From the IMG/VR virus record IMGVR_UViG_3300045988_081205: 64,000 nt of DNA, one strand, 5' to 3'. How positions within the stretch are numbered: the first letter of the stretch is position 1; the number at the start of each line of letters is the position of its first letter. The notes below the pieces were generated by a model, which made no database searches, was not told where the DNA came from, and saw only the letters and a list, made by a program, of their open reading frames with translations. The position numbers and the translations under genes were made by a program. Of this stretch, positions 38,478-59,591 are shown piece by piece. Source of the DNA: a virus.

Positions 38478-38479
38478 AT

Positions 38480-39410: not shown

Positions 39411-39736
39411 TATTCCTTATTCTCCTTTACAATTACCTTATATTTTCCTTTATATTTCCTTAATTCTACATTATCTGGGATATAATTATATGGGTTTTCC
39501 ACCTTAATAACCTCATCACCCACTTTGACGTATAGATAGCCATGCCGCTCAAACTGTACATTGCCAGTTGGCGCAGACTTGATTGGGCAATTCGCCATAT
39601 ATGCTAGGGGCTTCCAAATATGATGCTCAATACAACGCCTGACATGAGGACAGATAGGATTTCCCTCTTGCTTGTTGCAAGTTGGGATTTCGTCATAATT
39701 CACTACATTACAATATGGACAATCCACTATTTTCAC
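39410..39736 (-). CDS. hypothetical Cys-rich protein
   Basis: 108 aa. CPYC...C...CPH..RC. Confidence 0.5.
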   Translation of the reverse strand: MKIVDCPYCNVVNYDEIPTCNKQEGNPICPHVRRCIEHHIWKPLAYMANCPIKSAPTGNVQFERHGYLYVKVGDEVIKVENPYNYIPDNVELRKYKGKYKVIVKENKE

Positions 39737-39759
39737 CTACTTTGTTTGAATGTAATAAA

Positions 39760-39789
39760 ATGGGGAAAGATACGAATATCTCTCCCCAT
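39760..39789 (-). terminator. intrinsic terminator/attenuator after the major tail gene
   Basis: ATGGGGA / TCCCCAT stem, followed on the - strand by TTTATT. Confidence 0.55.
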
Positions 39790-39803
39790 TAAAATTAAAC
39801 GCA

Positions 39804-40874: not shown

Positions 40875-40888
40875 ATAAGATTTCCTCC

Positions 40889-41713: not shown

Positions 41714-42281
41714 AATCTACCACCTTACCAGAATCACCAACATTGACCGCCATATATAGCTGAACACCTGTGAATGTCTTATTGTTACCAATAGTTGATT
41801 TAGCCGCGCTATATCGGCTCATATCATTTAAGAACATGAGCTTACCTACGCCGCCTACTTCTGCGCCATTAAGCAAATATAGCATACAATGAATGAACAA
41901 ATCGCCGCGATTAACAGGAATACCGTTATATTCAACTAGACTCATCTGACCACCATATAAACAATCAAACGCATAGACTACTGTGCTAGTATATAACTCA
42001 GAAGCATGGATGTAATATTGGTATATCTTAACAACCTGCTTGGATTCAGCCATAGCGTCCTCAATTAGATTGGTTAAGAATACACTATATATATCCTGCT
42101 TGCCCTGCGCCCATACTAGCTTCATCTTCTGTTGAAATGTAAGCGGTTCATGGCTCAACGCCTTATAGTCCTTATATGCCAGCATTTTCCAAAAGACATC
42201 GGCAACAGGGTCGGTCGATTTTGCTAAATATACCATAATATTATATGGTATTGTCGGTAAACGACTTAATGAATTATACAT
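41703..42281 (-). CDS. hypothetical head-tail joining region protein
   Basis: 192-aa ORF with SD AAGGAGGG. Confidence 0.5.
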   Translation of the reverse strand: MYNSLSRLPTIPYNIMVYLAKSTDPVADVFWKMLAYKDYKALSHEPLTFQQKMKLVWAQGKQDIYSVFLTNLIEDAMAESKQVVKIYQYYIHASELYTSTVVYAFDCLYGGQMSLVEYNGIPVNRGDLFIHCMLYLLNGAEVGGVGKLMFLNDMSRYSAAKSTIGNNKTFTGVQLYMAVNVGDSGKVVDCGD

Positions 42282-42295
42282 CTAACCGCCCTCCT

Positions 42296-43048
42296 TTAGC
42301 CCATTGGAAATGGCGCGTTTTCATCCATTGGATAATCAACAGAGCTATTATCCGCAAGTTGATTCGCAATATCATCGCCAGCATGAACCTCATCAAGATA
42401 TAGCTCAAGAGTAAGCAATGTCGGCTTATCGATACCATATGCGTTGATTGCGTTTTGATAAGATAACAGCTTGAATGGTCTGCCACCTAGAATATATCTT
42501 GTATTCAACTTGAATAGTCTATATACATCCTCATTGCCCTGAACCATAACAACAGCATGGTTGTTTGGCGTAATGATTGGTGTACTCACCTGTGCTGATG
42601 GTGATTGCATATCATAGTCGACAACGCATGGCGCGCTAAAGATTACGTCATTGACCTCATCTTTAATACGCATGACATTGTTACAACGACGCACGCCAAC
42701 GGCACGTGGCAAACCATCAAATTTGCCAGAATCATGGACAATCCACACGTTATTATCGAACTTATAATACAGTCCACGCACAACAAAATGGTCAATGTTC
42801 CTAAATATTAGCTGTAAGAAATCTATAGTATCCTTTTGTCCTGTCGATGTGGTTGCCACAGTAGGCGCAACCCATGCTTGGACACAGCTGTATTCATTAG
42901 ACCCTATTTCATTTTGTTCTAGCAATTCGCCACCATTCTCCGGCGTTTTAGCAGACGTGTTGTACCATTGCGCACAAATGTATTCTTGCGTCAAATCACG
43001 ATAATAATCATTGGGGTTTGGTTGATATTGAAACATCTCGTATGCCAT
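42296..43048 (-). CDS. hypothetical virion protein
   Basis: The ATG at 43048 is preferred (the track opens at 43069). Confidence 0.5.
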   Translation of the reverse strand: MAYEMFQYQPNPNDYYRDLTQEYICAQWYNTSAKTPENGGELLEQNEIGSNEYSCVQAWVAPTVATTSTGQKDTIDFLQLIFRNIDHFVVRGLYYKFDNNVWIVHDSGKFDGLPRAVGVRRCNNVMRIKDEVNDVIFSAPCVVDYDMQSPSAQVSTPIITPNNHAVVMVQGNEDVYRLFKLNTRYILGGRPFKLLSYQNAINAYGIDKPTLLTLELYLDEVHAGDDIANQLADNSSVDYPMDENAPFPMG

Positions 43049-43049
43049 A

Positions 43050-43316
43050 TCAATCACCCATCCTTTCAATCCTGTTCGTCATGCGCAATACACATGAACG
43101 AATAATAGGATGAGTAAGCTCAAGCCCCATTTTACTTAATCCTGCCAATGTATCAGCAATTTCACCATCAACCGCTCTAAATCGCACAGATAGCCGCTCA
43201 CAATATGTTGTATAGTCGGATTCTTCGATTGTCGGTTCAAGACTGATTAAATCTTCAAACAATAACAGAACTTTATATAAAGCATGAATTTTATCTTGCT
43301 TGTCTGTTCTACTCAT
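43050..43316 (-). CDS. hypothetical protein
   Basis: 88-aa ORF. Confidence 0.5.
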   Translation of the reverse strand: MSRTDKQDKIHALYKVLLLFEDLISLEPTIEESDYTTYCERLSVRFRAVDGEIADTLAGLSKMGLELTHPIIRSCVLRMTNRIERMGD

Positions 43317-43330
43317 ATATCCACCCCTCT

Positions 43331-43771
43331 TTAATAATTATAGGAGGATAGATATAAGAGCTGGTATTTGTCGTGAATGAGCCTATCTACATCTTCTTCT
43401 AGCTTATCAATGACGTTCTGTTTTTCTTTGAAATTCTGCGAGGATACGCCATCCATCTGGAAAGATGATGGAACTTTAAGTTTTTGTGCAATCTGTGTTG
43501 CTACGTCCGTCTCGCCGCGCCACCAGTATATTACCCAATATTCGGCAAGAATCTGAATCTCTAAATCTGTTAAATCTGCGTCAAATTGTCTAAGCTCTGA
43601 ATCGTATGTTAACGGTTGTTCACATTCTATAAACTTTGCAGCTGAACTAACGATCCACCCATCAATCTTGTCGTGAAACAGCTCAATATTTGCATCATAT
43701 AGCTTGCGTAGTTTATAGTCATCAATTACACTTAATGCTCTTTGTCCAATAACATCAAATGATGTTGCCAT
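43331..43771 (-). CDS. putative head-tail connector/adaptor protein
   Basis: 146 aa. The call rests on position after the capsid module only. Confidence 0.3.
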   Translation of the reverse strand: MATSFDVIGQRALSVIDDYKLRKLYDANIELFHDKIDGWIVSSAAKFIECEQPLTYDSELRQFDADLTDLEIQILAEYWVIYWWRGETDVATQIAQKLKVPSSFQMDGVSSQNFKEKQNVIDKLEEDVDRLIHDKYQLLYLSSYNY

Positions 43772-43777
43772 AATTTA

Positions 43778-44434
43778 TCACTCCTTGTCATCAAGGGGTT
43801 CAATATCAATTAGATTTTTACCACTAAGTTCACCAATCTTAACAAGCACGTTCGCATCGACCGGATGTCCATCAAGCACCATATTAGAAATAGTATCTAC
43901 AATGATTTGCTTCTGCTGGTCAGTTGCGCCCTTATATACTTCACAGATATCAACTACATTCTGCTTGAGTAGCTCCTTGAGCTTTGTCGCACTAAGAATA
44001 TGACGATAAATTTCATCTAGGTCGCACTTATGAACAAATTCTGGGTCATCAATATATACCATGCCGCTAGATACGGTTTCGGGCATATTATTTACAACAG
44101 AAAATGCTTCTGACTCTGGAATCATCTTATACTTATACTGTCCTTCAATTCTATGCATACGAGTTCCGCGCAAATTGATATTGCCAGGACACATATTGAT
44201 GAACTTGATATTTCTAAGCGCCTTAGATTTATCCTCGACAGATGCCACATCTGTCTTAATCTGAGACTGTGCTTGCATAAGCACCTGCATCTGCGCCATC
44301 ATTTCTTCCATGCGCTTCTGCTGTTCTGCAAGCTGTGCCTTTAATGCCTCTTTTTCGGCATCAACAACAGGTGCTTCAGTCTGCTTGGTTGTCTTGGTAG
44401 TCGTAGTGGATTTAGTGTTTGTAGTATTTGCCAT
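43778..44434 (-). CDS. hypothetical protein with Thr-rich N-terminus and coiled coil
   Basis: 218-aa ORF immediately after the major capsid gene. Confidence 0.5.
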   Translation of the reverse strand: MANTTNTKSTTTTKTTKQTEAPVVDAEKEALKAQLAEQQKRMEEMMAQMQVLMQAQSQIKTDVASVEDKSKALRNIKFINMCPGNINLRGTRMHRIEGQYKYKMIPESEAFSVVNNMPETVSSGMVYIDDPEFVHKCDLDEIYRHILSATKLKELLKQNVVDICEVYKGATDQQKQIIVDTISNMVLDGHPVDANVLVKIGELSGKNLIDIEPLDDKE

Positions 44435-44470
44435 TCCTTTTATTTTCCTTTCTTATTTCCGTTATAAATA

Positions 44471-44493
44471 GAGAGGGGTTAATAACCCCTCTC
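44471..44493 (-). terminator. hairpin attenuator/terminator after the major capsid gene
   Basis: GAGAGGGG / CCCCTCTC stem, followed on the - strand by TATTTAT. Confidence 0.5.
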
Positions 44494-44502
44494 AGATAAT
44501 TA

Positions 44503-45594
44503 TTACTCAGTGATGGTGTATAGACCAGCGAAGGATGCACCAACAAACTCGAAGCCATAGTTTTTGCGCATTGTAAAATTCTGTGTAAGATCAGCATTCT
44601 CATAGAACTGATTGCTGTTGGTTAGAGTTGTAGACATAGCACCAACAACTAGCTTAGAACCAACAGGAGAAACAACATATAGCTTGTTGTCATCAAGAGC
44701 TAGACCATAGTTAGAGCCAGTAGGCATCTGAGGTAGCTCATAGAGAGCAAAGCCATAGAAGTCACGGAGAACATGGACAGAGCCGCCATTGGCGTCGTAA
44801 GTACCACGATAGCCCATAGTGCTATCAGGTAGAACGTTAGCTAGAGCAGAAGCAGTGCCCATGATAATTGGCTTAATGCCATTGTTATAAGCCTGAACGC
44901 GCTGTGCTAGGGCAATAAGCTTCTTAGCGTCAAACGCGGCATTCTCTAGGAACTGAGAAGGATAAGAAGCACCAGCTAGACCGGCATTAAGAGCGGCAAC
45001 AGCCATCTTCTGCATATCAATCTCAATGGAAAGAACGATAGCACGGACGAAATCAGCAATATCTTCCTTGCCAGCCATTACACGATACATATCAACGTAA
45101 GTGGTGATAATGCGCTCCTGCATGGAAATTACAACATCACCAGCATACTTCTTCTGACGGAAAGTAGTGCGCTCACCAGTACCACCAGCAGAGACAGTGT
45201 AAAGGGTACGAGGCATAACCTTGACCTTAACAATATCGCCAATGCCAGCCATACGGAAATCAACGAATGGAGCAAGAGACTCAGTAACATATGCAGGAAG
45301 AACTGCATTGACTAGAGCGTTAATAACTGCGAAGTTTGCCCAACGAACCATAGGATTAGCTGCCCACGCATCAGCATTCTCAGCGTTACGAGTGCAGTTG
45401 GAAAGACGCTCAACTTCTGCAAAATATGCGGCGTTGACAACATCGTGCTTTTCAGCAAGAGGCTTAGTTGCATCATAAGCGCCTAGCTTACGGCCCTGTT
45501 CAGCCTCGGACTTGTGGAAATGATAGTCCATGAACTGCTCATAGAACTTAGTGTTTCCATTGGAGAAAGCAACAATCTCTTTACTTAGATTCAT
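44503..45594 (-). CDS. major capsid protein
   Basis: 363 aa, strong SD AAAGGAGA. Position after the protease/scaffold and decoration-like genes. Followed by a hairpin. Confidence 0.6.
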   Translation of the reverse strand: MNLSKEIVAFSNGNTKFYEQFMDYHFHKSEAEQGRKLGAYDATKPLAEKHDVVNAAYFAEVERLSNCTRNAENADAWAANPMVRWANFAVINALVNAVLPAYVTESLAPFVDFRMAGIGDIVKVKVMPRTLYTVSAGGTGERTTFRQKKYAGDVVISMQERIITTYVDMYRVMAGKEDIADFVRAIVLSIEIDMQKMAVAALNAGLAGASYPSQFLENAAFDAKKLIALAQRVQAYNNGIKPIIMGTASALANVLPDSTMGYRGTYDANGGSVHVLRDFYGFALYELPQMPTGSNYGLALDDNKLYVVSPVGSKLVVGAMSTTLTNSNQFYENADLTQNFTMRKNYGFEFVGASFAGLYTITE

Positions 45595-45629
45595 AATATA
45601 TATCTCCTTTACTTATTTATTAAATTTAA

Positions 45630-46154
45630 TTAGTTGCGGGCGCACTTGAGAATCCAAGTAGGAACAGCTTCAATACCAATATCAACGGTATGCTCAGCCT
45701 CAATGGTAAAATAAGTACCAGAAGCAGGAGCGCTAGCAACTGCGACTAGGCGACCATCAATACCAACAGAGGCAACAGTAGCACTAGCGACAGTCTTGGG
45801 GTCCTTAGCATCTTGGAATGCAGAAGCAGGAACCTCAATGAAAGTACGACCAGCAGTTAGGCCCTTAATGGAGAATGCACTGCCCTTGGGGTTATAGAAA
45901 TAACGTGGATCGCTCATCTCCTGCATTTCAACAGTAGAGCCAACAGCGGGCTTTTCAACAAGCCATAGGTCAGTAGCATTAGCGGCAGGTAGTGTACAAG
46001 CAAATTCATAGCCACCATCAGTCTTTAGACCAAGAGCACCACGAGTAACAAACTGACCATTGTCTAGATCAACAGTAGCAATACCAGCACAGTTGATGGC
46101 ATCATTCTGCCAATCGTCAAGAGTGCGGATAACAAAAGAGTGAGTATTAGCCAT
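45630..46154 (-). CDS. putative head decoration / capsid accessory protein
   Basis: 174-aa beta-rich ORF directly upstream of the capsid gene. Confidence 0.3.
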   Translation of the reverse strand: MANTHSFVIRTLDDWQNDAINCAGIATVDLDNGQFVTRGALGLKTDGGYEFACTLPAANATDLWLVEKPAVGSTVEMQEMSDPRYFYNPKGSAFSIKGLTAGRTFIEVPASAFQDAKDPKTVASATVASVGIDGRLVAVASAPASGTYFTIEAEHTVDIGIEAVPTWILKCARN

Positions 46155-46189
46155 AATATATTTGTCTCCTTTTTAATCAATTTTAGTTT

Positions 46190-47860
46190 TTAGTCCCATA
46201 GACTAGTTCTTTTCTTGCCCTCAATTGGGGCCGCAAATGAAAATACGTCAGATTTTTCTTTCTTATTTACTTTCTTAGCCACAGAGAAACAACACGCTTT
46301 AACCTTATTGCTCCAAGCGTCAACTTCTTCAAACTTACATTCAAGGCCCTCTTGGCGAAGTTGCTTATATGCGTCATCCGCTAGATAATCTTTGCATTCT
46401 GTCATTACGGATTCTACACAAATAGCCTTTTCCTTGTCCTCTACATCTTTCTTAAACTGACGTAGCGTCTCAAGCTCAGAATTTTGACCCATAATGATAT
46501 TGTCTCTATCTTCAATATCTTTTTCAAGCTGTGCAATACGAGCTTTCATATCATCAGCAGACATTTCTTCCTCATGCCCATCATCGTCATGCCCGTCACA
46601 ATCAGCTAGACGATATTCAGCAACATTCTCAGGTTCTGCAAATTTCTTGATATTATCAGTCTCAGTAAATTCCTGCTTAACCTCAACAACCTCATCTGCA
46701 AGAGTAAGACCGTCCTCAGTCAGACTAAAATCGAGCCGATATAGGGTTTTTGCACGGTCGGTAATAATAGCAAATTTCTTGTTATCTTCCTCATAAATAC
46801 CATAAATACCATACGGCCAATCGCGCTTATCAATAGCGTCCCATAGCTTGCTCCAAAGGTCACCAATTTCAACTGCGCTAAATTCAATTTCAGCCATTTT
46901 CTTGTCCTCCTTTCTTTCAGAATCGTCATCAAGGTCTAACTTCTTATAGATAGCCTTAATTTTATTTACAACCTCAGTCTCATCATTCTGCTTTGCATAT
47001 GCTAGTGCAGCGCTCAGAGCGTTTCGGTTATACACAAATTTGTCACCGTCAAGCATCATAACTGGGTACTTGAGGTGTTCAGATGGCGCATCTTTCCAAC
47101 CATCTTCTACAAGTAGATATACAGATTTAACAAGCGTGTCACGATTCTTAGCCTCCATGATTTTATCTCTCATAGCTGCCTTGTCGTAATCACCCCAATC
47201 AGCCGTAGACATGGCTTCTTTGGACTTGTCAATCTTATACGTTTTCTTTTCAGCCATTGATTGTTTACGCTCCTCAACAAAATTCTTGAGTTGTGATAAA
47301 GAGTCAGACTTTTGCGCAAAGAACTTATCTGCATCATCCTCTGAAAATCTGACAAACTCTATATCAGATTCGGGACAACTCGGTTTTATGCTTTTCCCCA
47401 AAACTGTTACGCCCATAATGTTAAAACGTTGAACAATATTATCATCTTCGTCATCTGTAAAAATTTTCATTTCTACAGAAACAGCGCGATTCTTGTCTTG
47501 CTCAAACGCCTTGCAAAAATCTTTGGCATAAATTTTAGAGATAACAGTATCTACATATGCTCTAAGGTATCCATCATCATCATAGACAAATTCAACACTT
47601 TGGCTTCTTGGGATTCTGCCAACTATATGCTCATTCTTTGTATGAGTGGTGGGTTCTCCCATAAACATATCCGCAACGACCCATTTATTCAAAGCAGATG
47701 ACGCAGATTCGCGTAAGACATCTTCATCAATGATTAAATTGTGCGCGTTCGGTCTAGTTGATAAAAAGCCCATTTTGGCTATAGCAAATTCATCATCAGA
47801 ATAGCTATCAAAGTCAATTTTTTGGACATCATCAACAGCCAATGATACAATTTTTTCCAA
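46190..47860 (-). CDS. putative prohead protease-scaffold fusion protein
   Basis: 556 aa. The C-terminal half is highly charged coiled coil (scaffold-like). Located between the portal and capsid genes. TTG start after GAAAGGAGGAAG. Confidence 0.4.
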   Translation of the reverse strand: MEKIVSLAVDDVQKIDFDSYSDDEFAIAKMGFLSTRPNAHNLIIDEDVLRESASSALNKWVVADMFMGEPTTHTKNEHIVGRIPRSQSVEFVYDDDGYLRAYVDTVISKIYAKDFCKAFEQDKNRAVSVEMKIFTDDEDDNIVQRFNIMGVTVLGKSIKPSCPESDIEFVRFSEDDADKFFAQKSDSLSQLKNFVEERKQSMAEKKTYKIDKSKEAMSTADWGDYDKAAMRDKIMEAKNRDTLVKSVYLLVEDGWKDAPSEHLKYPVMMLDGDKFVYNRNALSAALAYAKQNDETEVVNKIKAIYKKLDLDDDSERKEDKKMAEIEFSAVEIGDLWSKLWDAIDKRDWPYGIYGIYEEDNKKFAIITDRAKTLYRLDFSLTEDGLTLADEVVEVKQEFTETDNIKKFAEPENVAEYRLADCDGHDDDGHEEEMSADDMKARIAQLEKDIEDRDNIIMGQNSELETLRQFKKDVEDKEKAICVESVMTECKDYLADDAYKQLRQEGLECKFEEVDAWSNKVKACCFSVAKKVNKKEKSDVFSFAAPIEGKKRTSLWD

Positions 47861-47951
47861 TTATCTTCCTCCTTTCTTCAAGGATATAACGAGACATTCG
47901 TCCCGTCTACTGTGGCCCAAAGAGCACTATGCCCAAGCCGCCCATTTATGG

Positions 47952-48371
47952 TTAATTGACATCTTGTGAATCAACACCAGTATAGTCAACAGACCACGTT
48001 TTCATTTCTTCAATAAGCCCCTTGGTATAATGATTCTTTTGCAGCTTATTGACGTAAATATCCTCAATCTGCAACATATGCATCTTTTCATAATATGGCA
48101 ATGTCTTGGTGTCCATGTATCTATAGAACATATTCTTAATTTCACCACGACACGCCTCGGTTGTATATACTACAGTTGCATCTAGTTTACTCTCAATCCT
48201 CTTGAGCGTCGCTTTGAGGGTATTTTGTTTTACTTTATCATCTTGTTCACTCTGATATTTTTTTAGGGCATTCGCAATATATAGTTTAATAGGCTTGCAA
48301 CATAGGGTAATAACCGCTGATAATGAAAGGATTGCTCCCAAAATTGCGGCGATATTCTTGACTGTTTCCAA
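47952..48371 (-). CDS. hypothetical membrane-anchored protein
   Basis: 139 aa with an N-terminal TM helix. TTG start after AAAGGAGGTG. Confidence 0.5.
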   Translation of the reverse strand: METVKNIAAILGAILSLSAVITLCCKPIKLYIANALKKYQSEQDDKVKQNTLKATLKRIESKLDATVVYTTEACRGEIKNMFYRYMDTKTLPYYEKMHMLQIEDIYVNKLQKNHYTKGLIEEMKTWSVDYTGVDSQDVN

Positions 48372-48396
48372 TCATAGACACCTCCTTTCTAGCGTA

Positions 48397-48573
48397 TTAT
48401 CCTTCTATTCCATTCTTATTTAACCATTTTAGCAATTTTGCATTTCGCTTATAATAGTGCGCGTCCTCATCTAAGTATTTAGCAGAAAATCCAGCCCTAT
48501 CTAATTCCCAAGCAAGTGTATCATCGGCAATAAAATAATCTTCTGGATTCTTTGGGATTCCAAGGATAATCAT
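48397..48573 (-). CDS. hypothetical small protein
   Basis: The ATG at 48573 overlaps the upstream TGA. 58 aa. Confidence 0.4.
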   Translation of the reverse strand: MIILGIPKNPEDYFIADDTLAWELDRAGFSAKYLDEDAHYYKRNAKLLKWLNKNGIEG

Positions 48574-49082
48574 TGATAATCCTCCAGCCCAACAATTCCC
48601 CAACTGTCAATATGACGGTCATATTCATCATATTCTGTTGACATTTGTTTGGCTTTATCATCCAATAGAATAATCTGCGCTACAACTTTATTCATATCCT
48701 GCATAAGCTCTTGTAACATAGCGTTGGCGTTAAAATCTTTTTCTTCTTTAGCAATATAATACGTCTGCTTAATAACTTGATATAGGTCAAGCGTTTCTCT
48801 AAGCATAGTATCCATCATTTGCTCAAGATTATCATATTCGCGCTTATCGCCGCGCGTCTCAGGGTAATATGTGGTAATATTCCACTGATGCTTAAAGTCG
48901 CTTACAGTATCAGCCATAAGCGGCCAGAGATGCGCTAATTTGTGATGTATAATATTTGCAGCATTCGGCATAGCAAATTTTACTTCCATCCACGAAACGC
49001 AACGGTCGAATGTGCGATTCAACTGGAAATACTGCCCAACTAGAATATCTAGGGCTTCACTTGTTCTTTCTGATAACATCAT
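48570..49082 (-). CDS. hypothetical helical protein
   Basis: 170-aa ORF. Helical-bundle-like composition. Confidence 0.5.
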   Translation of the reverse strand: MMLSERTSEALDILVGQYFQLNRTFDRCVSWMEVKFAMPNAANIIHHKLAHLWPLMADTVSDFKHQWNITTYYPETRGDKREYDNLEQMMDTMLRETLDLYQVIKQTYYIAKEEKDFNANAMLQELMQDMNKVVAQIILLDDKAKQMSTEYDEYDRHIDSWGIVGLEDYQ

Positions 49083-49093
49083 AATATTTCACC

Positions 49094-50671
49094 TTATTCT
49101 AATGAATCTCGGCTTGCTTCGCCACTTTCGGTAAGTGATGTTTCTGACTGACGGGGTCTACCACCCTCGTTATCTGAGCCGCCCTTGGTTGTATTGGTAT
49201 TTTTCAAGAGCTGTGTATATTTATCAATCCAACCGGTATATTTACTTTCAGCCATCATTGCTTCAAATACTTGTGGTTGATAGCCCGATACAGATGCCCA
49301 TGTCTGCATAGGTAGAACAATGCCAGAATCAGCCATTTTTTTCACTTTATCAAATCGAGCTTCACGCTCAAATGGGTAGTTAGACCCGTCGAAGATAAAT
49401 TTCCACTTGTATTTCTTTGTTAGCTGATTGACATAAAATTCTAGGAAATTGCTAAACTGTGGATATAGCGGCTTCATAGTCTGGTACATGTCATTAAGTC
49501 CAGCCTCAATCTCAGCGTTGGACTGTCTATCAGAGCTATAAATAACACGGCTCACACCAGAACCAACACCAGCAGATGTAGCAAGTTGAGTTGAATACAT
49601 ATCTGTATTCTTATCCTCAAACTGGTAGAACTTAATATTTTCAAGCGGCATTGCGGCAAGTTTTGACAATGAGCCAAGACCAGCCTTTGCCTTCTGCATA
49701 AATCCACCTAGCGTCTTTGGGTCAATAGCAAACTGATTCGCTTTAGTACCAGATTTAGCCGAATCAAATAGACGAATTTCACCAGCTAGAATAGCATAGG
49801 CTGACGCAATATCCTTGTTATACTGCAACTGAGCAATATCATCATTAGCAATGGCATTCTTCAGAAATGGAGCTAAAAATGGCGTATTATTAAATGTGCT
49901 AGGATTCCACTTAAATACCCATGCACCATCACTAGGTGATGTTTGCGTCCACATAGCATATGCTCCATTGCGTCTATTTAGTGGGTTTGTAGGGCGATAA
50001 TTTTTGAACGCTTCTTCCTCAGAGCCAAATACGCGCTGATAATATTTCTTAAATGCTGGGTCAAACCCATTGATGTCTACACCAGCTTGCAGGAAATAGC
50101 TCATGTCAAAATCAAACAACATGCCCTTTTCCCAATATCCAGTAAGTAGACATCTATCTTGTGGCAAAATCTGTAGGGCGAATTTCATTCCTTTGTTGCC
50201 CCACTTCGTCTTTCTGAACCAAGTGAAATATGTTTCATGCGTCACAATCTGTGCTATAACTTTACCAAATTCGGCCTTATAATCAAATTTGTTCAAAAAA
50301 TCATATACGCGCCGCTTATCCTCTTGGTATGCGCTTGATTCATAATCACTCTGAGTAAAAGCATTGATACAAACAGGCTGTAGATCAAATGATAGAGCGT
50401 TACAATATGCTTGTAGAGTTCTGGCAAATATCATGTCCCAGAATTTCATATATTCCATATAGCCCTGAATTTGCTCTGAATTTTCCTTATATTCAGCAAG
50501 AGCCTTGCGGATTTTATCAGAGCTTGGGGTTTCTGGATTGTTGTTCAAACTCTGCAATAGTTGATTACTCAACATTGGTGACCAAAAGCCAAACTGGTCA
50601 TAAGCATATAACGCCTGTGCAAACTCTGTTACAGCTTGAGCCTGTTCAAATGTTACTAGCGGTTCTGCCAA
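49094..50671 (-). CDS. portal protein
   Basis: 525 aa. First large ORF after the large terminase. Acidic C-terminus. TTG start after AAGGAGGG. Confidence 0.6.
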   Translation of the reverse strand: MAEPLVTFEQAQAVTEFAQALYAYDQFGFWSPMLSNQLLQSLNNNPETPSSDKIRKALAEYKENSEQIQGYMEYMKFWDMIFARTLQAYCNALSFDLQPVCINAFTQSDYESSAYQEDKRRVYDFLNKFDYKAEFGKVIAQIVTHETYFTWFRKTKWGNKGMKFALQILPQDRCLLTGYWEKGMLFDFDMSYFLQAGVDINGFDPAFKKYYQRVFGSEEEAFKNYRPTNPLNRRNGAYAMWTQTSPSDGAWVFKWNPSTFNNTPFLAPFLKNAIANDDIAQLQYNKDIASAYAILAGEIRLFDSAKSGTKANQFAIDPKTLGGFMQKAKAGLGSLSKLAAMPLENIKFYQFEDKNTDMYSTQLATSAGVGSGVSRVIYSSDRQSNAEIEAGLNDMYQTMKPLYPQFSNFLEFYVNQLTKKYKWKFIFDGSNYPFEREARFDKVKKMADSGIVLPMQTWASVSGYQPQVFEAMMAESKYTGWIDKYTQLLKNTNTTKGGSDNEGGRPRQSETSLTESGEASRDSLE

Positions 50672-50913
50672 ATTTCGCCCTCCTTTCTTTATTTTATTGT
50701 TTATATATTAGAGCAGTTAGATTATGGACTTCATTAACGTATGCCAAAGTTCATTGAGCTACTTGTCCTCCCTATCCGCTCGTTTTATATTTTTGAGTGT
50801 TTTTGTTTTCAGCTTTTTGATTAAACCTAAGTTGGAACTTGGATTCCACACAACCCTAATAGCACCTCCACGGCAACATACCAACATAGCAGCCGCTTCA
50901 TAGGTAAGTCATA

Positions 50914-52758
50914 TCACCAGACAAGTTGAATAGAATCTATATCAAACTCATCTTCTTGTAACTGTTGCTGCCATGCGTTCTCAATTAAATCAATAATGTA
51001 ATTACCATACATAATGGTTACAATTCTATCCTTTGTGCCTGTGCGCGGTTCTTCTAGTTTAATTTTATCCTGCTTAATAACCGTCTTTAGATTAACAGCC
51101 TCTATAACCATCATATCAGTTTGACCATATGGCTCAAGCTGATTAGCTAATTCTTCAGCGGTATATTGATAATATTCACCGCTATCCGTTAGTTCGTTCT
51201 GATAATCTTGCATAGAAATAAGGAATTTCATATTGTTGGTTTCAAGTTGTTTACGCAATGATAACCAACCGCTACTGTTTAATTCAGGTGTGCCAATAAT
51301 CGGTATCAAACATGGTACAGCATTTTTATCAACTGTGCGGTTATGATAATCGTCTATCTTAGCTTTAGATACAACCTGATATTTATCAGCCAATCCAAAT
51401 CCGCGCGAATCCCATCTTGCGCCCAAATCGGGTCGTGGTAATGGTTCTGTAAGGTGGTTTGCTATTACCTCACCACCACTACGCGAATCGAATAGACAAT
51501 AATCTGCATCATATACCCATTTAAGGTATCTAAATCTATCAGATGCACCGATTGTATCAGATGCGTCATGACCCTCTATATAATCAACATGACGCTCGAA
51601 TCTATTCTTTTTACTGTCCCAATGAGCCGACATAAGAGTAATAATTGTATTATCGTTCTTTGTACAACCAGTGGTGTTTGCAAATGCCAAGTCCATTGAC
51701 AGTATGCGTATCTCATCCTCTTTCTTTTCTGGGAAATCAGGTTGTTCGCCAGCAAAGAATTGTAATGCAGTAGGTGGACGGAAACAATGCTCAATAATTT
51801 GGTTCTCTTTGAATGACTTTAGATTAAAGAACGCATCATCGCCCTCTGAAATCATCTCGTTCAAATCTTCCATTCTGAAGTCCATTTCGCCGCCAGCCTT
51901 ATCATTCCAATAGTCAGCCCATGTCTTAAACCCATTATCAATAACCATAAATATATCACCAGCAAAAATATTACATCTTACTTTGGTGTCGGTAAATATA
52001 CGAGTAAATGTCTTTTTGAACAATAGCCAGAACCACTCAAACTTATATCTGGCAGATGTGATATAGATATGTTGACATTCCTCTTTCCAACGAGGATTAT
52101 TACCATATACAGGGTTACTAAGATATTTGGCTTGTCTTGGATGCGCCATCTTCTCAAAGACGGAATCGACCATACCTTTTTTGAGCAAACGGGCTTCTTC
52201 GTATGTAAGAATTGTTGCTCTTGGCCCACGAGAGCTATCTTGGCATGGTAATACACGCAAAGTAGAACCGTTAAGCTTATTCTCTATTCTATAACCATCT
52301 TCTGGTTTAGTGATAACCAAATATTCGTGCTCATACATATATAAGAGATATGGCGATAATTTTTTAATCAATTCATCCCTTATTTTATCTTCAACCATCT
52401 TGTTCGCCTGTGCAACAGTTGATGATGTAATTACCGCCTCTGTATATGGATAAAGATTCATCTTTACAATATTACCTAGACCAACGATAAAAGTTTTAGA
52501 TAAGCCACGACAACATATTGCGAAGAACACATCTGATATGCCCATCAGATATATCATTATCATCTGAAATGGGCGCAACTTGATACCAAGAACTAAATCA
52601 ACATATATATGCCAATTTCGGCGTAACTAAAATAAAGTCAGCCACTCTATAGCATTTTCCTCTTTCTGCGCATCTTTCATTGCATTTTCTTTTGCTTTTG
52701 TTGTAATTAGGTGGTTTCCAAGGAACTTGCGTCTCAAGCCCCCCATCTGACTTTTCAT
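50914..52758 (-). CDS. terL: terminase large subunit, interrupted by one in-frame TAG (52627-52629)
   Basis: The segment YVDLVLGIKLRPFQ...CCRGLSKT (Walker A-like) ...ILTYEEA (Walker B-like) ...SMDLAFANT (nuclease Asp) contains no start codon between the TAG and the TTG at 52578. An ATG at 52758 with SD GGTGGTGA lies 43 codons upstream in the same frame. Confidence 0.7.
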
Positions 52759-52774
52759 TCTATATCACCACCTA

Positions 52775-53602
52775 TCATCTCTTTTGGTCTGAGGGCAAAT
52801 CTGGATATTCGCGCGTCCCCCCAACCAAATTCTTACAACATCTCAAAATATCTTTCCATGTCAGCTCAAATCCACTAAAATCCTTATACTTATTCAAGTC
52901 TTCACATTCACACGGTTTTGTATTCTCAATATTCCATGCCATGCGTTCTATGAATTTTCCAGTATCACTCTGCTTGTTTTCCTTAAATTGGTCTAGTTTT
53001 AGCACCTTCATCAATTTAAGAATTTCATCGCCAGCATCCTTATCTGTTGGGTCTTTGAACTTGCGTAGATTAGCTTGGCACAGATTTCTATACGTCATCT
53101 CTTTAGCTGTGTCCATATCAAGAATTTCGTCAGTGTATCGTTCAAATATATCATCAAGCCACTGATATTCCCATTCTTCATAATCAGCGCCCCACTGACG
53201 ATTCCATCTTGCTTTAAGCGCCACCTCATCTGTTTCTCCTTTAGCTACATCGCCCAAATCCTTGAAATTAGACAGCTCCATATCACTATCCCAAACGCCA
53301 GTTAATTTATCAGGAGATGTAGATAGATATGTATGATACAACATAAATAGACTAGGCTTTTTTCCCTTAGCCGCCTTTTCTAGCGTATCAAGACAAGCAG
53401 TATATTCAGCACGTCTCATAGGAATACCAGTCTGCATACAGGTTGACCATAATGCCGCGCCTTGATCTTTAGTGGATTCAAGAGCTTGTTTATATAGCTC
53501 AGTTACACATGATTTGCATGGTTTAATATATTCACCCGTTTTGATTGGGCTTTTATAGAATTGGCTATCTTGCTTTTCTTTGCCACAATATGGGCAAAAC
53601 AT
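52775..53602 (-). CDS. putative terminase small subunit / packaging-associated Zn-ribbon protein
   Basis: 275 aa with N-terminal CPYCG...CKSC. The functional call rests only on its position immediately upstream of terL. Confidence 0.3.
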   Translation of the reverse strand: MFCPYCGKEKQDSQFYKSPIKTGEYIKPCKSCVTELYKQALESTKDQGAALWSTCMQTGIPMRRAEYTACLDTLEKAAKGKKPSLFMLYHTYLSTSPDKLTGVWDSDMELSNFKDLGDVAKGETDEVALKARWNRQWGADYEEWEYQWLDDIFERYTDEILDMDTAKEMTYRNLCQANLRKFKDPTDKDAGDEILKLMKVLKLDQFKENKQSDTGKFIERMAWNIENTKPCECEDLNKYKDFSGFELTWKDILRCCKNLVGGTREYPDLPSDQKR

Positions 53603-54509
53603 ATTCTCATTCCTTTCCGTTCCGTTTATTTTCCTATAAATATGACGAAGCAGCCAAGATTGCTCTCGGCTGCTTCGTATTTGTTAAGGTTCAATATTCA
53701 ATTAAACAACAGTTCCCATTGAGTTGGGCTTATTGTAGATATGAGCCGATTGGCTCTGACCACCATCCTTTCTTTAATTATGCTTCGGATAAACCAGTGG
53801 ATAATTCAAGAGAATAGTGACCTCCTTTCGGATATTCATAGCCGCCAATGAGTAGTAGCGACAGGCAGTTTCAGTATATACCTAGATACAAACATTTCGT
53901 TAAAGCTCCATTTATAAAGCGCCATCGAGCATCTAGCGCCACTCACTGTTATGTTTTATTATTTTACAAATGCGACATATTCTTGCCGTGTCGCCGGGCG
54001 TTATGGTGCAATGGGTCTTAGATGCCATCACATCTCGCCTTTGCATCGTTCTAATGGCAATACGGTTTTCATTGTTGTCATATGGTATACCGCAAACCTT
54101 CGATTAACGTCCACATATTGCCGAAAGACAACCCGGTTCTATGCTTCATACGCTCGTATAACACACCTGTTGCTATACGCCTATCGTCTAGGATAGGATT
54201 TTGCAAGAGCCGCCATTAACGACTCCAAGAACTCCTTGCACGCATGGTACATGAGATGAATTGTCATATCTCACCACAGTATATGACGCGCTCGTATTAG
54301 GATCTGCTGAATTGCAGATTCACGGCGAAGATATTCAACTCTGCTAGGTGGGTCAATCGCCCCGCAAGCATGATTAACACAGCCATAGCTATCACCTAGC
54401 AGAGAATGAATCAATTTAAGGGTGGTAGCGCCATTTGCAACTGACGCTACCGATAAAATAAATTCTGTCGGATGACAGCGAAAAGCGTTCAGGCTTTTCC
54501 TCTAGTGTA
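53603..54509 (-). ncRNA. ORF-free, hairpin-dense ~0.9 kb island (candidate large structured RNA; strand uncertain)
   Basis: Stops are frequent in all six frames. Visibly richer in G+C than the flanks. At least 10 local 5-12 bp stems, e.g. 54339-54350/54393-54404 (12 bp), 54424-54430/54445-54451 (7 bp) and 53645-53655/53668-53678 (11 bp). Confidence 0.35.
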
Positions 54510-55694: not shown

Positions 55695-56226
55695 TCAATT
55701 TCTGTTCCTTTTCCTTCTTTTTCCGTTCATAATCTTCTTTTTTCTTGTTGATTACATTGATAAAATCATCATAGCTCTGTTGCTTTGCTTGCTCAATGCG
55801 GTCATCTTGCATTTGCTTCAATGTTCGTTTTGCCGTTCGTTCCATTTCAGCCTGAGTTATCAGTTTGAGATCATTTGGTGTCAACTTACGCTCACGAACA
55901 CGCTTGCGATATCTTTTTGTAACCCCTCGTCCATTGACGTTATTGATGAAATCATCATTGCTTTTATATGTAATTTTGAACCACGCCGGGATTGTTCTCT
56001 CTACGAGCTCGCCATTATCATCTTTTGCCATTCCAGTCCAAGACGGCACTTCTTTTAACTCAAATGTTCCAACTCCGGGCATTTGACATCTTCCATCAAA
56101 ATGCAACATATGGACAATAGTATCGACACATGCTTGCCAATATTTTTTTACTGTCTCTGGTTTAGATTCAAGCAAACTAGCCGCATATTCATAAAATTGC
56201 TGATTCAACTTATTATGTTCAGCCAT
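55663..56226 (-). CDS. HU/IHF-like DNA-binding protein with long charged C-terminal extension
   Basis: MPGVGTFELKEV...beta-arm...FKITYKS resembles the HU fold core. About 90 aa of Lys/Glu-rich tail. Confidence 0.5.
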   Translation of the reverse strand: MAEHNKLNQQFYEYAASLLESKPETVKKYWQACVDTIVHMLHFDGRCQMPGVGTFELKEVPSWTGMAKDDNGELVERTIPAWFKITYKSNDDFINNVNGRGVTKRYRKRVRERKLTPNDLKLITQAEMERTAKRTLKQMQDDRIEQAKQQSYDDFINVINKKKEDYERKKKEKEQKLNESTEDTTSD

Positions 56227-56638
56227 CTTCTTCTTCCTTCATAAACTTGGGATTATCAGGATAATTCTCCAATACCCAAGCATCATATTCCTCTTTGGTT
56301 GCGCCTTTCCCATACAACGTACCAGCTTTTACATAACTCGCCATATGTTTCTCAGCCTTAAATTCTAATCGATAATAGCCCTGTCTGTCTGGATAGTACA
56401 TACGCCGCTTTTGAAAGCCATTCCAATATTCACCAGCTGGACGAGGGGGATAATCGCGGAATGTAATAACACCAATATCTGGCAATGAATATTCCACGCC
56501 ATGCTGTAGTGTCTCGCGGATGATATCGTGATAGTTTCTTAACACTAACTCAATAATCTTAGAATCAACGCCTGTACGCCGTCGTAGCTCTTTACTCATG
56601 TCGGCTTTGCCTAGCCTAGGATATTTGTTTTTATGCAA
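56219..56638 (-). CDS. HU/IHF-like DNA-binding protein
   Basis: MSKELRRRTGVDSKIIELVLRNYHDIIRETLQHGVEYSLPDIGVITF...RLEFKAEK matches the HU-family helix-helix-beta-arm pattern. Confidence 0.6.
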   Translation of the reverse strand: MHKNKYPRLGKADMSKELRRRTGVDSKIIELVLRNYHDIIRETLQHGVEYSLPDIGVITFRDYPPRPAGEYWNGFQKRRMYYPDRQGYYRLEFKAEKHMASYVKAGTLYGKGATKEEYDAWVLENYPDNPKFMKEEEDG

Positions 56639-56707: not shown

Positions 56708-59296
56708 CTACTGTTTTAACATATCCCCCGTGCGGACAGGTGGGGCTTCACGTGATTCAGTACGCCGCTGATTATCTGCCTTCTTGTAACATTCCTCTGA
56801 GCAGTAATGTTGACATACATCTCGCGGCTTAAACCGCTTGCCACAAATGGAGCAGATTGGATTAAGTTGCGCCGTATTGATTCTCAAATTCTCTACAATC
56901 GTCCAACCAAAACAAGCCCACAACATTTTCTTATTGCTTGATTTTTTGACAGTATATAGATAAGCCACCAAGCTATTTACCACAACATCTAGCGGCTCGT
57001 TGCTATATTCCACTATATCTTGTGCAATGCGGCGATATTTATATAAATCGTCTTCATTGATATGCGGGTCATCGCCATAGTCAAATCGGCGCTGATTCCA
57101 CATCCACCAATTATACCTCTCTATGATTGGGGAATTTTCTCTAGTTGTATAATCAACTGATTTATTTATCAACATCGTCCAGTCGAATTTCCCAATCTTG
57201 TTATTATAGCGAATTCGGGAAGTAGGGATTTTAGCCGATATACGATTCATCGTGGAATTGTTTGGAGGCTCTACTTGTGTATCTGGGTCTTTGTCTTTAG
57301 CATAGATGAAAAAGTTGGGTAATTTTGATTTAGTATATTTTTTAATAATATCAGCAATTTCTTTTGGAGGTTCACTTTTCCACAACGTTTTCGCAAAATC
57401 AATAATTTGATTGTTCTTCATTGTGAGCCAAGCAATAACTCTAATTTGCTCCTCAGTCATTTTACCGCCATTGGCGTTTTTTACCTTCGATATAGAGTTA
57501 CTTATCGGGCCAATCGACCCACCTGTATATGCGGTGCTTACGCCTTCATACAATCTATCCGCATCAATAATACCCCCACGAGCCTTTTTTAAGTCATATG
57601 ACAACGGCACAATTCCTTGCATATTACGCTTCGCTACGGTTGTTAGTGTTCTATCTTTTACAACCAAACTAATATCCCCATCAAAATCTTGCTGCAATAT
57701 ACGGCTAATCATATCGTGACAACTGAAGTAAACGCATTTTGTTCCGCCTAACCATTTATCGGTTAGTTCATTCCGCTTGTTAATTCTAACTGCGTGTTCT
57801 TGATACAAGTGTGGACTTCTCAAACAATCAAGCTCATCGCCATCTTTGAATTGATTGGTGTAAACCTCTCCATTCTCAAGTATGCCGATTGGGAATTGCT
57901 CACCTTTGAACAACCACTCACAAAATGCCACAGGGTCAGGAGAAATAAACAGATATTTACCGTTAATTCTCAATCTGCCGCCTCTTGCTTGCTTTACCAA
58001 GCTTTTTTTTGTTTGTTTCAACAACTCCCGGTTATACGCATCTTTGAATAATTCTGGATATATTGTCAACGCTTCTTGCATGGCTGATTTTGTTTGATTG
58101 TATTCAGTCGCGCCTAATAGTCTCATAGTAGTTTGATAGTCTCTCCCGACGCTATCAATTTCATCTGCTGTCTTGGCAATAAGCCGCTCAATCTCATTGT
58201 CTGTCATATCACTTAAAGATTGAAGCATCTGATAATTGATTCGCGCTTTTGGTATATAATCTTCCTCAACTTTGCAACAACCAAAGTAACAACCATAACT
58301 TTTGAAATTAGACTTGTAACACAACCAAGATGGATAAAACTTATACAGCTTGAACATTGACTTCGTTAGGATATACTGAATATCATCCTCAAGAATCTTC
58401 CATTCTTTACCATATATATCAGTTACAGCCCAATCGTCAGCGGTGAAATATTCTTTGAGCCATCCTCTAAAGTCGAAATAAGATACCAATCCTTTTATCC
58501 ACGGCGCTCGAACAATTTGTGTCTTAAATCCGGGCTTACAACACATACCCCAGCCATCTGTCTCAGCTATAATCGTCTCAGACGTTTTTCGCGTAATGCT
58601 GTAATCTGTACAATCAATAAAATCTGATTCAGCTATAACCGGCATTTCAAAATCATCAACTACAATACAGCGATCTATATCAAAGTTCTCAATTCTGTCG
58701 GTTGCAGACGCCATAAGACTCTTATAACTCAATAGCTTGTTTTCATTCATGCCGCCCAGCGCATTGATTGAATCAATGGTCAGTCCGCACATAAGAGTTT
58801 GCTCAACAGCTAAATAATCTTTTTCGCAAACGGCCATAAATCGCTTTGTGCGTATCATGCCCGCTCCACATGAATAGAAAATGTAATGTTCACCATTGTA
58901 ATTAAACCCGTTGTGAATAATGCTGTTTAGCACTTCAAAAAAGAACACATTGACAATGATGATTTTGTCACTTCGCTCAAATGTCTTAATGCCAAGACTA
59001 CGAGTCAATTCAGAGCAGAACAGGTTAATAATTGTCTTGTCTGTTACCGCATCTGGATTGAGTTCTCTTGTAATATTATCCTCAAGCGATTTTCTCAGCA
59101 ACTCAACAAGTTCATCTTTATGCTTCTTGATAACACGGTTAATTGATGAAACGCGCCATTTTCGATTTTGACCATCCTTCTCGCGCATTCTCAAGGCATA
59201 TAGCTTGACAAGTCGATTATGTATTGCTTGTTCCTTCGGCGTATAAAAAGCATCTGTTGCTACAGAAGGTATATAACAGAACTCTGTCAATGGCAC
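56708..59296 (-). CDS. YonO-like single-polypeptide RNA polymerase candidate (two double-psi beta-barrel type)
   Basis: RSPHLY (57806-57820 encodes RSPHL) followed ~40 aa later by DFDGD (57674-57688), the beta-prime-type Mg-binding signature. An upstream RAPWIKGLVS (58490-58510 encodes RAPWIKG) resembles the beta-type barrel. C-terminal Zn ribbon. GTG start. Confidence 0.6.
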   Translation of the reverse strand: MPLTEFCYIPSVATDAFYTPKEQAIHNRLVKLYALRMREKDGQNRKWRVSSINRVIKKHKDELVELLRKSLEDNITRELNPDAVTDKTIINLFCSELTRSLGIKTFERSDKIIIVNVFFFEVLNSIIHNGFNYNGEHYIFYSCGAGMIRTKRFMAVCEKDYLAVEQTLMCGLTIDSINALGGMNENKLLSYKSLMASATDRIENFDIDRCIVVDDFEMPVIAESDFIDCTDYSITRKTSETIIAETDGWGMCCKPGFKTQIVRAPWIKGLVSYFDFRGWLKEYFTADDWAVTDIYGKEWKILEDDIQYILTKSMFKLYKFYPSWLCYKSNFKSYGCYFGCCKVEEDYIPKARINYQMLQSLSDMTDNEIERLIAKTADEIDSVGRDYQTTMRLLGATEYNQTKSAMQEALTIYPELFKDAYNRELLKQTKKSLVKQARGGRLRINGKYLFISPDPVAFCEWLFKGEQFPIGILENGEVYTNQFKDGDELDCLRSPHLYQEHAVRINKRNELTDKWLGGTKCVYFSCHDMISRILQQDFDGDISLVVKDRTLTTVAKRNMQGIVPLSYDLKKARGGIIDADRLYEGVSTAYTGGSIGPISNSISKVKNANGGKMTEEQIRVIAWLTMKNNQIIDFAKTLWKSEPPKEIADIIKKYTKSKLPNFFIYAKDKDPDTQVEPPNNSTMNRISAKIPTSRIRYNNKIGKFDWTMLINKSVDYTTRENSPIIERYNWWMWNQRRFDYGDDPHINEDDLYKYRRIAQDIVEYSNEPLDVVVNSLVAYLYTVKKSSNKKMLWACFGWTIVENLRINTAQLNPICSICGKRFKPRDVCQHYCSEECYKKADNQRRTESREAPPVRTGDMLKQ

Positions 59297-59440
59297 TTAA
59301 TCAATCACCTCTAATTCATTCTCTGAACTACCATATATCCAAAGCGCCCAATCACGCTCAGTTGGCTCATATTCATCATCCCATACTTCTGGCTCTATAT
59401 CTTCTGATACATACCAGTTATAGCTCATTTCGCTCCACAA
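59297..59440 (-). CDS. small acidic protein (47 aa) translationally coupled to the RNAP-like gene
   Basis: TTG start 8 nt after AAGGAGGTGG. Its TAA is immediately followed by the GTG of the 862-aa ORF. Confidence 0.4.
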   Translation of the reverse strand: MWSEMSYNWYVSEDIEPEVWDDEYEPTERDWALWIYGSSENELEVID

Positions 59441-59469: not shown

Positions 59470-59498
59470 ATTATATCATATAATTGATTATTTGTCAA
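59470..59498 (-). promoter_or_regulatory. sigma-A-type promoter driving the leftward RNAP operon (proximal)
   Basis: On the - strand: TTGACA (59498-59493), 17-nt spacer, TGaTATAAT (59478-59470). Confidence 0.7.
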
Positions 59499-59562: not shown

Positions 59563-59591
59563 ATTATACCATATATTACAGTATTTGTCAA
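59563..59591 (-). promoter_or_regulatory. sigma-A-type leftward promoter (distal), face to face with the promoter at 59514
   Basis: On the - strand: TTGACA (59591-59586), 17-nt spacer, TGgTATAAT (59571-59563). Confidence 0.65.

Follow-up and report, generated by a model that had tools for sequence, protein, structure and literature searches.

The 64,000-nucleotide stretch of viral DNA analyzed here (IMG/VR virus record IMGVR_UViG_3300045988_081205, hereafter the window) contains an uninterrupted open reading frame (ORF) for 862 amino acids at positions 56708-59296 of the minus strand, whose product, judged by sequence and predicted fold, belongs to the YonO family of single-chain two-barrel RNA polymerases. 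It is a new family member in an uncultivated phage, and the enzyme type was already known: work from 2003 to 2017 had already established the class, its catalytic motifs, and its part in late transcription, and the finding leaves knowledge of the enzyme class unchanged. We consider it very probable that the ORF encodes a functional DNA-dependent RNA polymerase with two double-psi beta-barrels (DPBBs) on a single chain, orthologous to YonO of the Bacillus prophage SPbeta, and that a five-gene operon transcribed by the host is followed by a late unit of about 31 kb that this polymerase transcribes from a long leader. The homology, invariant residues, fold, and synteny behind this reading were computed, while the activity, the specificity for a DNA template, the start of the late unit, and its dependence on the polymerase are drawn from SPbeta YonO. 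A first-pass annotation of the window had proposed a YonO-like single-chain polymerase for this ORF, and the proposal is borne out by homology, profile comparison, predicted structure, and gene order.

The GTG start of the ORF is backed by its relatives, whose proteins open with the identical residues MPLTEFCY. A BLASTP comparison aligned residues 3-832 of the window polymerase collinearly with residues 8-816 of SPbeta YonO, with 339 of 843 positions identical (40%) and 60% positives. Translated searches (tblastn) of GenBank phages returned 40 records, the best being Bacillus phages of the SPbeta group. The matches in these phages fall on genes annotated as yonO or "DNA-directed RNA polymerase," with 39-40% identity across 96-99% of the polymerase (E = 5e-163 for SPBc2), and comparable matches were found in Psychrobacillus phage Perkons and Clostridium phage D-1873. 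At the DNA level, 14 kb searched for near-identical sequence in GenBank phages gave no match. Among the PHROG families, phrog_8308, labeled "unknown function," matched the protein end to end (residues 7-842, E = 1e-222), and phrog_4291, labeled "RNA-dependent RNA polymerase," matched weakly over the catalytic region. With the window polymerase as query, 2806 proteins had E <= 1e-5 among 8000 candidates scored; with SPbeta YonO as query the count was 4638, again among 8000 candidates scored. Many homologs bear a precomputed match to the Pfam family of RNA-dependent RNA polymerases (RdRP, PF05183), and 19 of 33 aligned relatives match it at E <= 0.01, the best at 2.3e-15. A Pol I-like right-hand fold of the T7 type (Pfam RNA_pol) was found in none of the Pfam, PHROG, PDB sequence, and PDB fold searches, in agreement with the earlier remark that the protein lacks T7-type features.

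Ruprich-Robert and Thuriaux (2010, PMC2919709) describe eight residues that all two-barrel RNA polymerases share without exception; in QDE-1 these are D709, R738, K743, R962, P964, D1007, D1009, and D1011. To place the window polymerase in this scheme we used a family alignment of 33 sequences, drawn from a gut-metagenome clade and the Bacillus YonO clade, with 39-82% identity to the window polymerase. All eight residues are present and invariant in 33/33 sequences (D247, R263, K268, R493, P495, D537, D539, and D541), and the invariant columns also include P265 and G540. The spacings R263-K268 and R493-D537 are 5 and 44, compared with 5 and 45 in QDE-1. These residues fall in the segments VRAPWIKGLVS (residues 262-272), RSPHLYQEH (493-501), and DFDGD (537-541), the last lying 44 residues past R493. 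In the pairwise alignment, D537/D539/D541 stand opposite D535/D537/D539 of YonO, and a triple Asp-to-Asn mutant of YonO had its RNA synthesis abolished (Forrest et al. 2017, PMC5467207). By analogy, D537, D539, and D541 together with D247 would serve two Mg2+ ions, and R263, K268, and R493 may contact the incoming nucleoside triphosphate (NTP) and the RNA.

The first-pass annotation had read DFDGD as the signature of the multisubunit beta-prime subunit. The motif is where that annotation placed it, but D-x-D-G-D is all that is conserved: the second motif residue varies, being F in the window and N in SPbeta YonO (DNDGD), and literal identity with the beta-prime DFDGD is therefore incidental. 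In VRAPWIKGLVS, which had been likened to a loop of the beta subunit, R263 and K268 are invariant, but their spacing of 5 is that of R738/K743 in QDE-1, as opposed to 8 in beta/Rpb2. A C-terminal zinc ribbon, CxxC...CxxxC with ligands C815, C818, C832, and C836, had also been put forward as an undescribed feature. The word "zinc" is indeed nowhere mentioned in the YonO papers PMC5467207 and PMC2919709, but the four cysteines are invariant in 33/33 family members, and SPbeta YonO has CCICGK...CQSCG, so that on sequence grounds the ribbon is a trait of the family and no peculiarity of the window protein. The ribbon accounts for stray JGI labels of "ribosomal protein L37E" on relatives, and the only match in PDB sequence searches, a faint one, pairs the polymerase C-terminus with the L37e zinc ribbon (E ~2.4). 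The invariance of catalytic and zinc-ligand residues in 33 homologs means that the motifs are not due to chance.

An AlphaFold2 model built with the 33-sequence alignment reached a mean predicted local distance difference test score (pLDDT) of 87.6 and a predicted template modeling score (pTM) of 0.82, with beta-strand clusters around residues 210-273 and 442-546, that is, in both motif regions. A Foldseek comparison of the model with the PDB gave 20 matches at E <= 1e-3, all of them to maize or Arabidopsis RDR2 or to QDE-1 (E = 2e-19 to 3e-13, probability 1.0, template modeling score 0.41-0.56, 720-960 columns), which points to a QDE-1/RDR2-like two-barrel fold. Matches to beta-prime/Rpb1 were weak (E > 0.3, over a few dozen to a few hundred columns), and the beta-prime NADFDGD motif is not kept beyond D-x-D-G-D; both observations place the protein outside the multisubunit beta-prime subunits. 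Against BFVD, the best matches were phage entries named "RNA dependent RNA polymerase" (E = 5e-34), followed by protein A7KVB1 of phage 0305phi8-36 (E = 8e-11) and a protein of crAss-like phage cr118_1 annotated as a DNA helicase (E = 1e-4), and the tail of the list included small RlpA-type DPBB proteins. The two barrels of the model would face one another, as judged from the global structural matches and not from coordinates.

The gene order around the polymerase mirrors the SPbeta order yonP-yonO-yonN...yonK-yonJ...yonG-yonF. HU-like genes had been noted downstream of the polymerase, and both are supported, the 139-residue protein above the PF00216 cutoff and the 187-residue protein below it. 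Near-identical relatives of the YonJ-like protein match Pfam YonJ_CC, and relatives of the YonG-like gene and terminase region match YonG_N and TerL_ATPase. In SPbeta, YonO is required for 37 late genes that form one transcription unit, and its deletion abolishes plaques. This unit has a single start, with an unannotated non-coding RNA and yonK both lying downstream of it. In our SPbeta locus (L001), the primers used in the published primer extension fall at positions 9282-9305 and ~9500-9526, both inside a 1.7-kb non-coding stretch between yonN and yonK. The SPbeta start site thus lies past yonN, which leaves the polymerase and HU-like genes outside the YonO-dependent unit.

From the SPbeta start site in the yonN-yonK gap and the comparable leader present here, we infer a two-stage transcription of the window. 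The host sigma-A RNA polymerase would probably transcribe a five-gene operon, from 59440 to 54510, from promoters at 59591-59470; the operon would comprise a 47-aa acidic ORF, the polymerase, the two HU-like genes, and the YonJ-like exonuclease gene, which is probably its last gene. The polymerase would then probably transcribe the ~31-kb block of structural and packaging genes in a single long unit, starting in or near the 907-nt leader and independent of host promoters; by analogy with SPbeta, this leader is probably the start region of the polymerase-dependent unit. The first-pass annotation had placed the polymerase gene at the head of the late block, which is right as to order and strand, but the late unit itself probably begins downstream of the gene, in the leader.

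The distribution of promoters was examined by scanning the whole window for TTGACA-17-TATAAT at 11/12 positions or better. The minus strand had three sites: a pair ahead of the polymerase operon and a single one, at 21060, that falls outside the block. Both sites ahead of the operon are perfect (12/12) and have an extended -10 TG, confirming the two tandem host-type promoters described earlier, and the proximal one is retained in related loci along with the small ORF, including loci that diverge further upstream. The coding strand of the 36.8-kb leftward block (22609-59440) held no other match of at least 11/12, as the first-pass annotation had also reported, and two antisense matches lie inside the late block, at 28807 and 41581. 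On the coding strand of the plus-strand blocks (1-22000 and 59500-64000), ten sites reach 11/12 or better, and six of these are perfect. Such an asymmetry would be expected of a 36.8-kb leftward block that lacks internal host promoters.

The control region at 59470-59782 holds four perfect sigma-A-type promoters, two leftward (59591-59563 and 59498-59470) and two rightward (59514-59542 and 59754-59782). The distal leftward and the first rightward promoter stand face-to-face with their -10 elements ~20 bp apart, an arrangement that suggests transcriptional interference or a switch. In the same divergent control region, an inverted repeat with perfectly matched 19-bp arms and a 10-nt spacer (59675-59722; CAATTTAACTATTATCTAC / GTAGATAATAGTTAAATTG) is a candidate operator or bidirectional hairpin.

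The leader is a mosaic of modules among relatives, and it shares with the SPbeta late leader an element made up of a CTCAT-stem-loop-stem-AAGGAG hairpin and, usually, a second hairpin. In a pairwise search the two leaders aligned over a 55-nt segment with 80% identity (E = 6e-8). The pattern CTCAT-N4-loop-N4'-AAGGAG occurs once in the 64-kb window, starting at 54255 on the minus strand, while the SPbeta leader has two tandem copies of the element (L001 10203-10226 and 10262-10331), and a prophage-like locus in a Ruminococcus metagenome-assembled genome (MAG) has one (L087 9440-9505), in the gap right after its YonJ-like gene. The inner stem occurs as GUAC/GUAC, CUAC/GUAG, and CUGC/GCAG, with 70/70 cells paired and compensatory changes at two pairs; 3 of 500 shuffles reached the observed score. 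The SPbeta and window copies differ by a 1-nt indel, which excludes a conserved reading frame. The SPbeta element lies ~700-960 nt downstream of the interval holding the mapped start site and is therefore not the mapped SPbeta promoter.

A hairpin joined to a non-initiating Shine-Dalgarno-like box recalls two Bacillus mRNA stabilizers, the cryIIIA STAB-SD element and the 5' stabilizer of phage SP82, and by this analogy the leader element may plausibly act as a processing or stabilizer site. No Rfam family matched the hairpin element in a search of the leader, and a blastn search of the 73-nt element against all phage records gave nothing significant at database scale. The Rfam search did place a sub-threshold drum-like RNA in the leader at 54058-54154 on the minus strand (39.9 bits, E = 1e-5). 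In its place, the SPbeta leader has a DUF3800-VIII RNA that exceeds the threshold and a skipping-rope RNA that does not. Elsewhere in the late block of the window, a drum RNA (RF02958, 54.2 bits, above threshold) lies at 50792-50906 on the minus strand, between the terminase-region ORF and the portal gene.

The small ORF immediately upstream of the polymerase is real and conserved. It encodes 15 acidic residues and 1 basic residue, has a strong AAGGAGG ribosome-binding site, and ends in a TAA stop directly adjoining the polymerase GTG. Gene calls in metagenomes include it, and one 90% cluster has 856 members. Among close relatives the aromatic residues are invariant or nearly so, third codon positions vary about twice as often as first and second positions, and versions with the pattern W-x-EMSY...EPE-x-(W/L)D precede polymerases 56-80% identical to the window polymerase. 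No PHROG or Pfam family matched the small ORF, a search of 5.8 billion proteins with it returned close relatives only, and its sequence showed no detectable similarity to SPbeta YonP. Its AlphaFold model is poor (pLDDT 58.7), with one short helix. The translational coupling to the polymerase that the first-pass annotation described is present in the window but not universal: in loci L009-L011 it is broken by an HNH-type homing-endonuclease ORF between the two genes. That inserted ORF (5203-5979, 258 aa) carries, as judged by eye, an HNH motif (HHIVPK...) and NUMOD-like repeats.

In four other loci (L021, L022, L024, and L026), a ~95%-identical small ORF stands ahead of a polymerase allele only ~59% identical to that of the window, which argues against tight co-evolution of the pair. 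Compared with window positions 54510-59440, these loci have the small ORF and the first HU-like gene at 92-97% identity and the second HU-like gene at 81-98%, and the YonJ-like gene is ~97% identical in L021, L022, and L024 and 46% identical in L026. Conserved flanks around a polymerase of ~59% identity indicate that the polymerase allele has been exchanged as a cassette. YonJ-like alleles swap too, with 46-50% identity in L007, L012, L015, and L026.

As speculation, the 47-aa peptide could be a cofactor of the polymerase or an inhibitor of the host polymerase. A broader form of this idea holds that YonO-type polymerases do not work alone and that the peptide is their dedicated partner, either an initiation or specificity factor or an inhibitor of host RNA polymerase that enforces the switch; separately, the CTCAT-hairpin-AAGGAG element would be a cis-element of the YonO system, serving as a processing or stabilizer site or as a recognition hairpin. 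We regard this proposal as rather improbable; if true, the peptide partner or the leader element would bear on how YonO finds and expresses its operon.

Several observations weigh against the two-stage reading or bear on its parts. A Pfam scan of the window polymerase itself returned no family even at E <= 10, and hence no RNA polymerase domain, and PDB sequence searches with the single sequence and with the 33-sequence profile returned nothing relevant, so that the link to the RdRPs and to beta-prime comes from the predicted structure and from relatives of the protein. Both the polymerase and the late unit are read here from sequence and predicted structure. A comparison of the SPbeta start-site interval (L001 9305-9500, between the published primers) with the window leader found no shared motif, so that the putative start of the late unit is placed here by analogy. 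The polymerase gene also precedes the late genes and shares their strand, and because of this position read-through by host RNA polymerase is the main rival. An active polymerase could then have a narrower job, such as making only the leader non-coding RNA or priming replication, while the late block is expressed mainly from the sigma-A promoters. The polymerase and late genes do run on one strand without interruption behind two perfect host promoters, a single terminator-like site, a weak hairpin of only 5 bp (54478-54465), lies between the YonJ-like gene and the leader, and enzymes of the QDE-1 type accept varied templates, to go by PDB entry titles. Yet deletion of yonO in SPbeta silences the 37 late genes and prevents plaque formation, the window has the SPbeta gene order and the shared leader element, and the high processivity and limited pausing described for YonO fit a long operon. 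On this balance we think read-through as the main source of late transcripts unlikely.

The eukaryotic RdRPs are the closest solved structures, and relatives of the window protein match PF05183 and are labeled "RNA dependent RNA polymerase" in GenBank and UniRef, which could be taken to mean that the enzyme copies RNA, for example in a phage or host process resembling RNA silencing or in defense. These names are automatic transfers from Pfam, however, and the sole characterized member, SPbeta YonO, is strictly DNA-dependent, with a strong preference for DNA over RNA templates, besides being highly processive and induced with the prophage (PMC5467207). With 40% identity to YonO from end to end and a matching genomic context, an RNA-copying role for the window protein is very hard to credit. 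We give still less weight to an inactive relic or a purely structural protein that has retained polymerase-like motifs, for which the negative Pfam scan is the only argument and a nonspecific one: the ORF is uninterrupted, all catalytic residues and the four zinc ligands are intact and invariant, thousands of homologs are under evident purifying selection, and the model is of high confidence. A functional YonO-type polymerase that transcribes the late block from the leader is thus the reading that we carry into the comparison below. The features on which it draws are collected in Table 1.

Table 1. Features of the window around the YonO-family polymerase gene and its putative late unit (all on the minus strand).
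Feature	Position	Strand	Evidence or remark
Late block: YonG-like gene, terminase region, portal, virion structural protein, tape-measure, tail genes	22609..53602	-	
Non-coding leader, 907 nt	53603..54509	-	Largest non-coding stretch of the leftward block by far
Leader element: CTCAT-stem-loop-stem-AAGGAG hairpin and second hairpin	54190..54262	-	Common to SPbeta late leader and Ruminococcus MAG prophage-like locus
YonJ-like metallophosphoesterase/exonuclease, 394 aa	54510..55694	-	tblastn E 9e-24 to YonJ
HU-like DNA-binding protein 2, 187 aa	55663..56226	-	PF00216 sub-cutoff, E 1.5e-3; marginal tblastn match to YonN
HU-like DNA-binding protein 1, 139 aa, at SPbeta YonN position	56219..56638	-	PF00216 E 1.2e-5, 25.9 bits (cutoff 22.4)
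YonO-family single-chain two-barrel RNA polymerase (by sequence and predicted fold), 862 aa	56708..59296	-	Homology, invariant residues, predicted fold, gene order
Zinc ribbon CxxC-x13-CxxxC (C815, C818, C832, C836), C-terminal	56789..56854	-	Family-invariant, SPbeta YonO included
Beta-prime-like barrel codons: R493, P495, predicted metal-binding D537-x-D539-G-D541	57674..57820	-	Triad aligned with essential YonO triad
Beta-like barrel codons: D247, R263, P265, K268 (TDGWG, VRAPWIKG)	58493..58558	-	4/4 family-invariant
47-aa acidic, Trp/Tyr-rich ORF	59297..59440	-	TTG start, or 43 aa from ATG at 59428
Proximal sigma-A-type promoter, 12/12, extended -10 TG	59470..59498	-	
Distal sigma-A-type promoter, 12/12, extended -10 TG	59563..59591	-	Facing rightward promoter 59514-59542

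IMG/VR contains viral contigs of about 88-90 kb to which the window is essentially identical, and its close relatives come from metagenome assemblies, one of them a Hadza stool-DNA assembly. In the search for a host, a single-protein scan of genome contigs found nothing, and an alignment-based scan of genome contigs gave 80 loci, the closest at 52-59% identity. The MAGs that hold the closest loci carry conflicting labels (Gastranaerophilales, Muribaculaceae, "Bacilli," Tenericutes, and Eubacteriales) and are probably mis-binned phage contigs, with no consistent host label. Divergent from the polymerase operon, the plus strand at 60162-61364 encodes a protein of 400 aa whose N-terminal part is a coiled coil and which also has a T5orf172/MUG113 domain; this neighbor, with its SNIPE/T5orf172/MUG113 matches, is kept in relatives whose polymerase is as little as 56% identical.

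In related IMG/VR phages the yonO homolog is split by ~1-kb inserts with free-standing ORFs. One insertion site is near residue 537, at or near the DxDGD motif (L021, L022, and L024), and another near residue 633, close to the motif NNQ(I/V)ID (L015, L016, L017, L022, and L026). L022 has both inserts, with ORFs that match HNH_3 (just below the Pfam cutoff) and GIY-YIG and with a sub-threshold group I intron match at 9686-10040. Inteins were rejected as the source of the inserts, as the exon frames end in stops and the inserts carry free-standing HNH/GIY-YIG ORFs. SPbeta-like Bacillus phages show the same split, annotated there as yonO_1 and yonO_2.

SPbeta YonO is the closest of the known systems. 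Both enzymes are single chains of ~840-860 residues, collinear at 40% identity from the N-terminus to the zinc ribbon, with the same Asp triad, basic residues, and C-terminal CxxC...CxxxC ribbon. Both loci have an upstream small ORF, an HU-like gene, a YonJ-like exonuclease, a YonG-like gene, terminase and structural genes, and a long non-coding leader with the hairpin and AAGGAG element. They differ in the metal motif (DFDGD in the window, DNDGD in SPbeta YonO), in the number of HU-like paralogs (two, compared with YonN alone in SPbeta), and in the upstream small ORF, which in the window encodes 47 residues, is very acidic, and lacks detectable similarity to YonP. No homolog of YonK was found in the window, and the leader follows the YonJ-like gene, whereas in SPbeta it precedes yonK and yonJ. 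The phages themselves contrast, one being uncultivated, ~90 kb in size, and known from gut metagenomes, the other a 134-kb Bacillus prophage.

The solved structures of QDE-1 and RDR2 (PDB 2j7n, 7w82, and 7rqs) match the predicted structure over nearly the whole chain and have the same eight catalytic residues, at QDE-1-like spacings. Sequence identity to them is only 11-13%, undetectable by sequence or profile search, and the characterized phage homolog YonO copies DNA; by analogy the role here would be phage late transcription as opposed to RNA silencing. The barrels of beta and beta-prime (Rpb2/Rpb1) share with the window polymerase the D-x-D-G-D loop, the upstream R-x-P, and basic residues in the partner barrel. 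A multisubunit RNA polymerase (msRNAP) differs in having five subunits in place of one chain, and there is no detectable homology outside the barrels. According to the published YonO analysis, trigger-loop homology is not detectable in YonO, which at ~100 kDa was predicted to be without most msRNAP domains.

To our knowledge, YonO is the only biochemically characterized single-chain relative of the cellular RNA polymerases. Two-barrel polymerases of crAss-like phages are packaged in the virion and act early. The cr118_1 protein and that of phage 0305phi8-36 are two-barrel kin of the window polymerase by structure, at 10-14% identity, and they are larger and stand in another genome context. Bacillus phage 0305phi8-36 has been reported to carry a YonO-like ORF (PMC2919709), and a 2021 preprint on SPbeta-like phages describes YonO as a unique RNA polymerase observed only with SPbeta. 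Compared with that view, the whole SPbeta-type late-transcription module, with polymerase, HU-like proteins, YonJ- and YonG-like genes, terminase region, and long structured leader, is found also in abundant uncultivated phages of ~90 kb from gut metagenomes. The locus thereby provides comparative material for two questions about YonO, the identity of its promoter and its need for a cofactor, and the candidates that can be put to the test are the zinc ribbon, invariant in the family, the acidic small ORF, conserved in relatives, and the leader hairpin that SPbeta shares.

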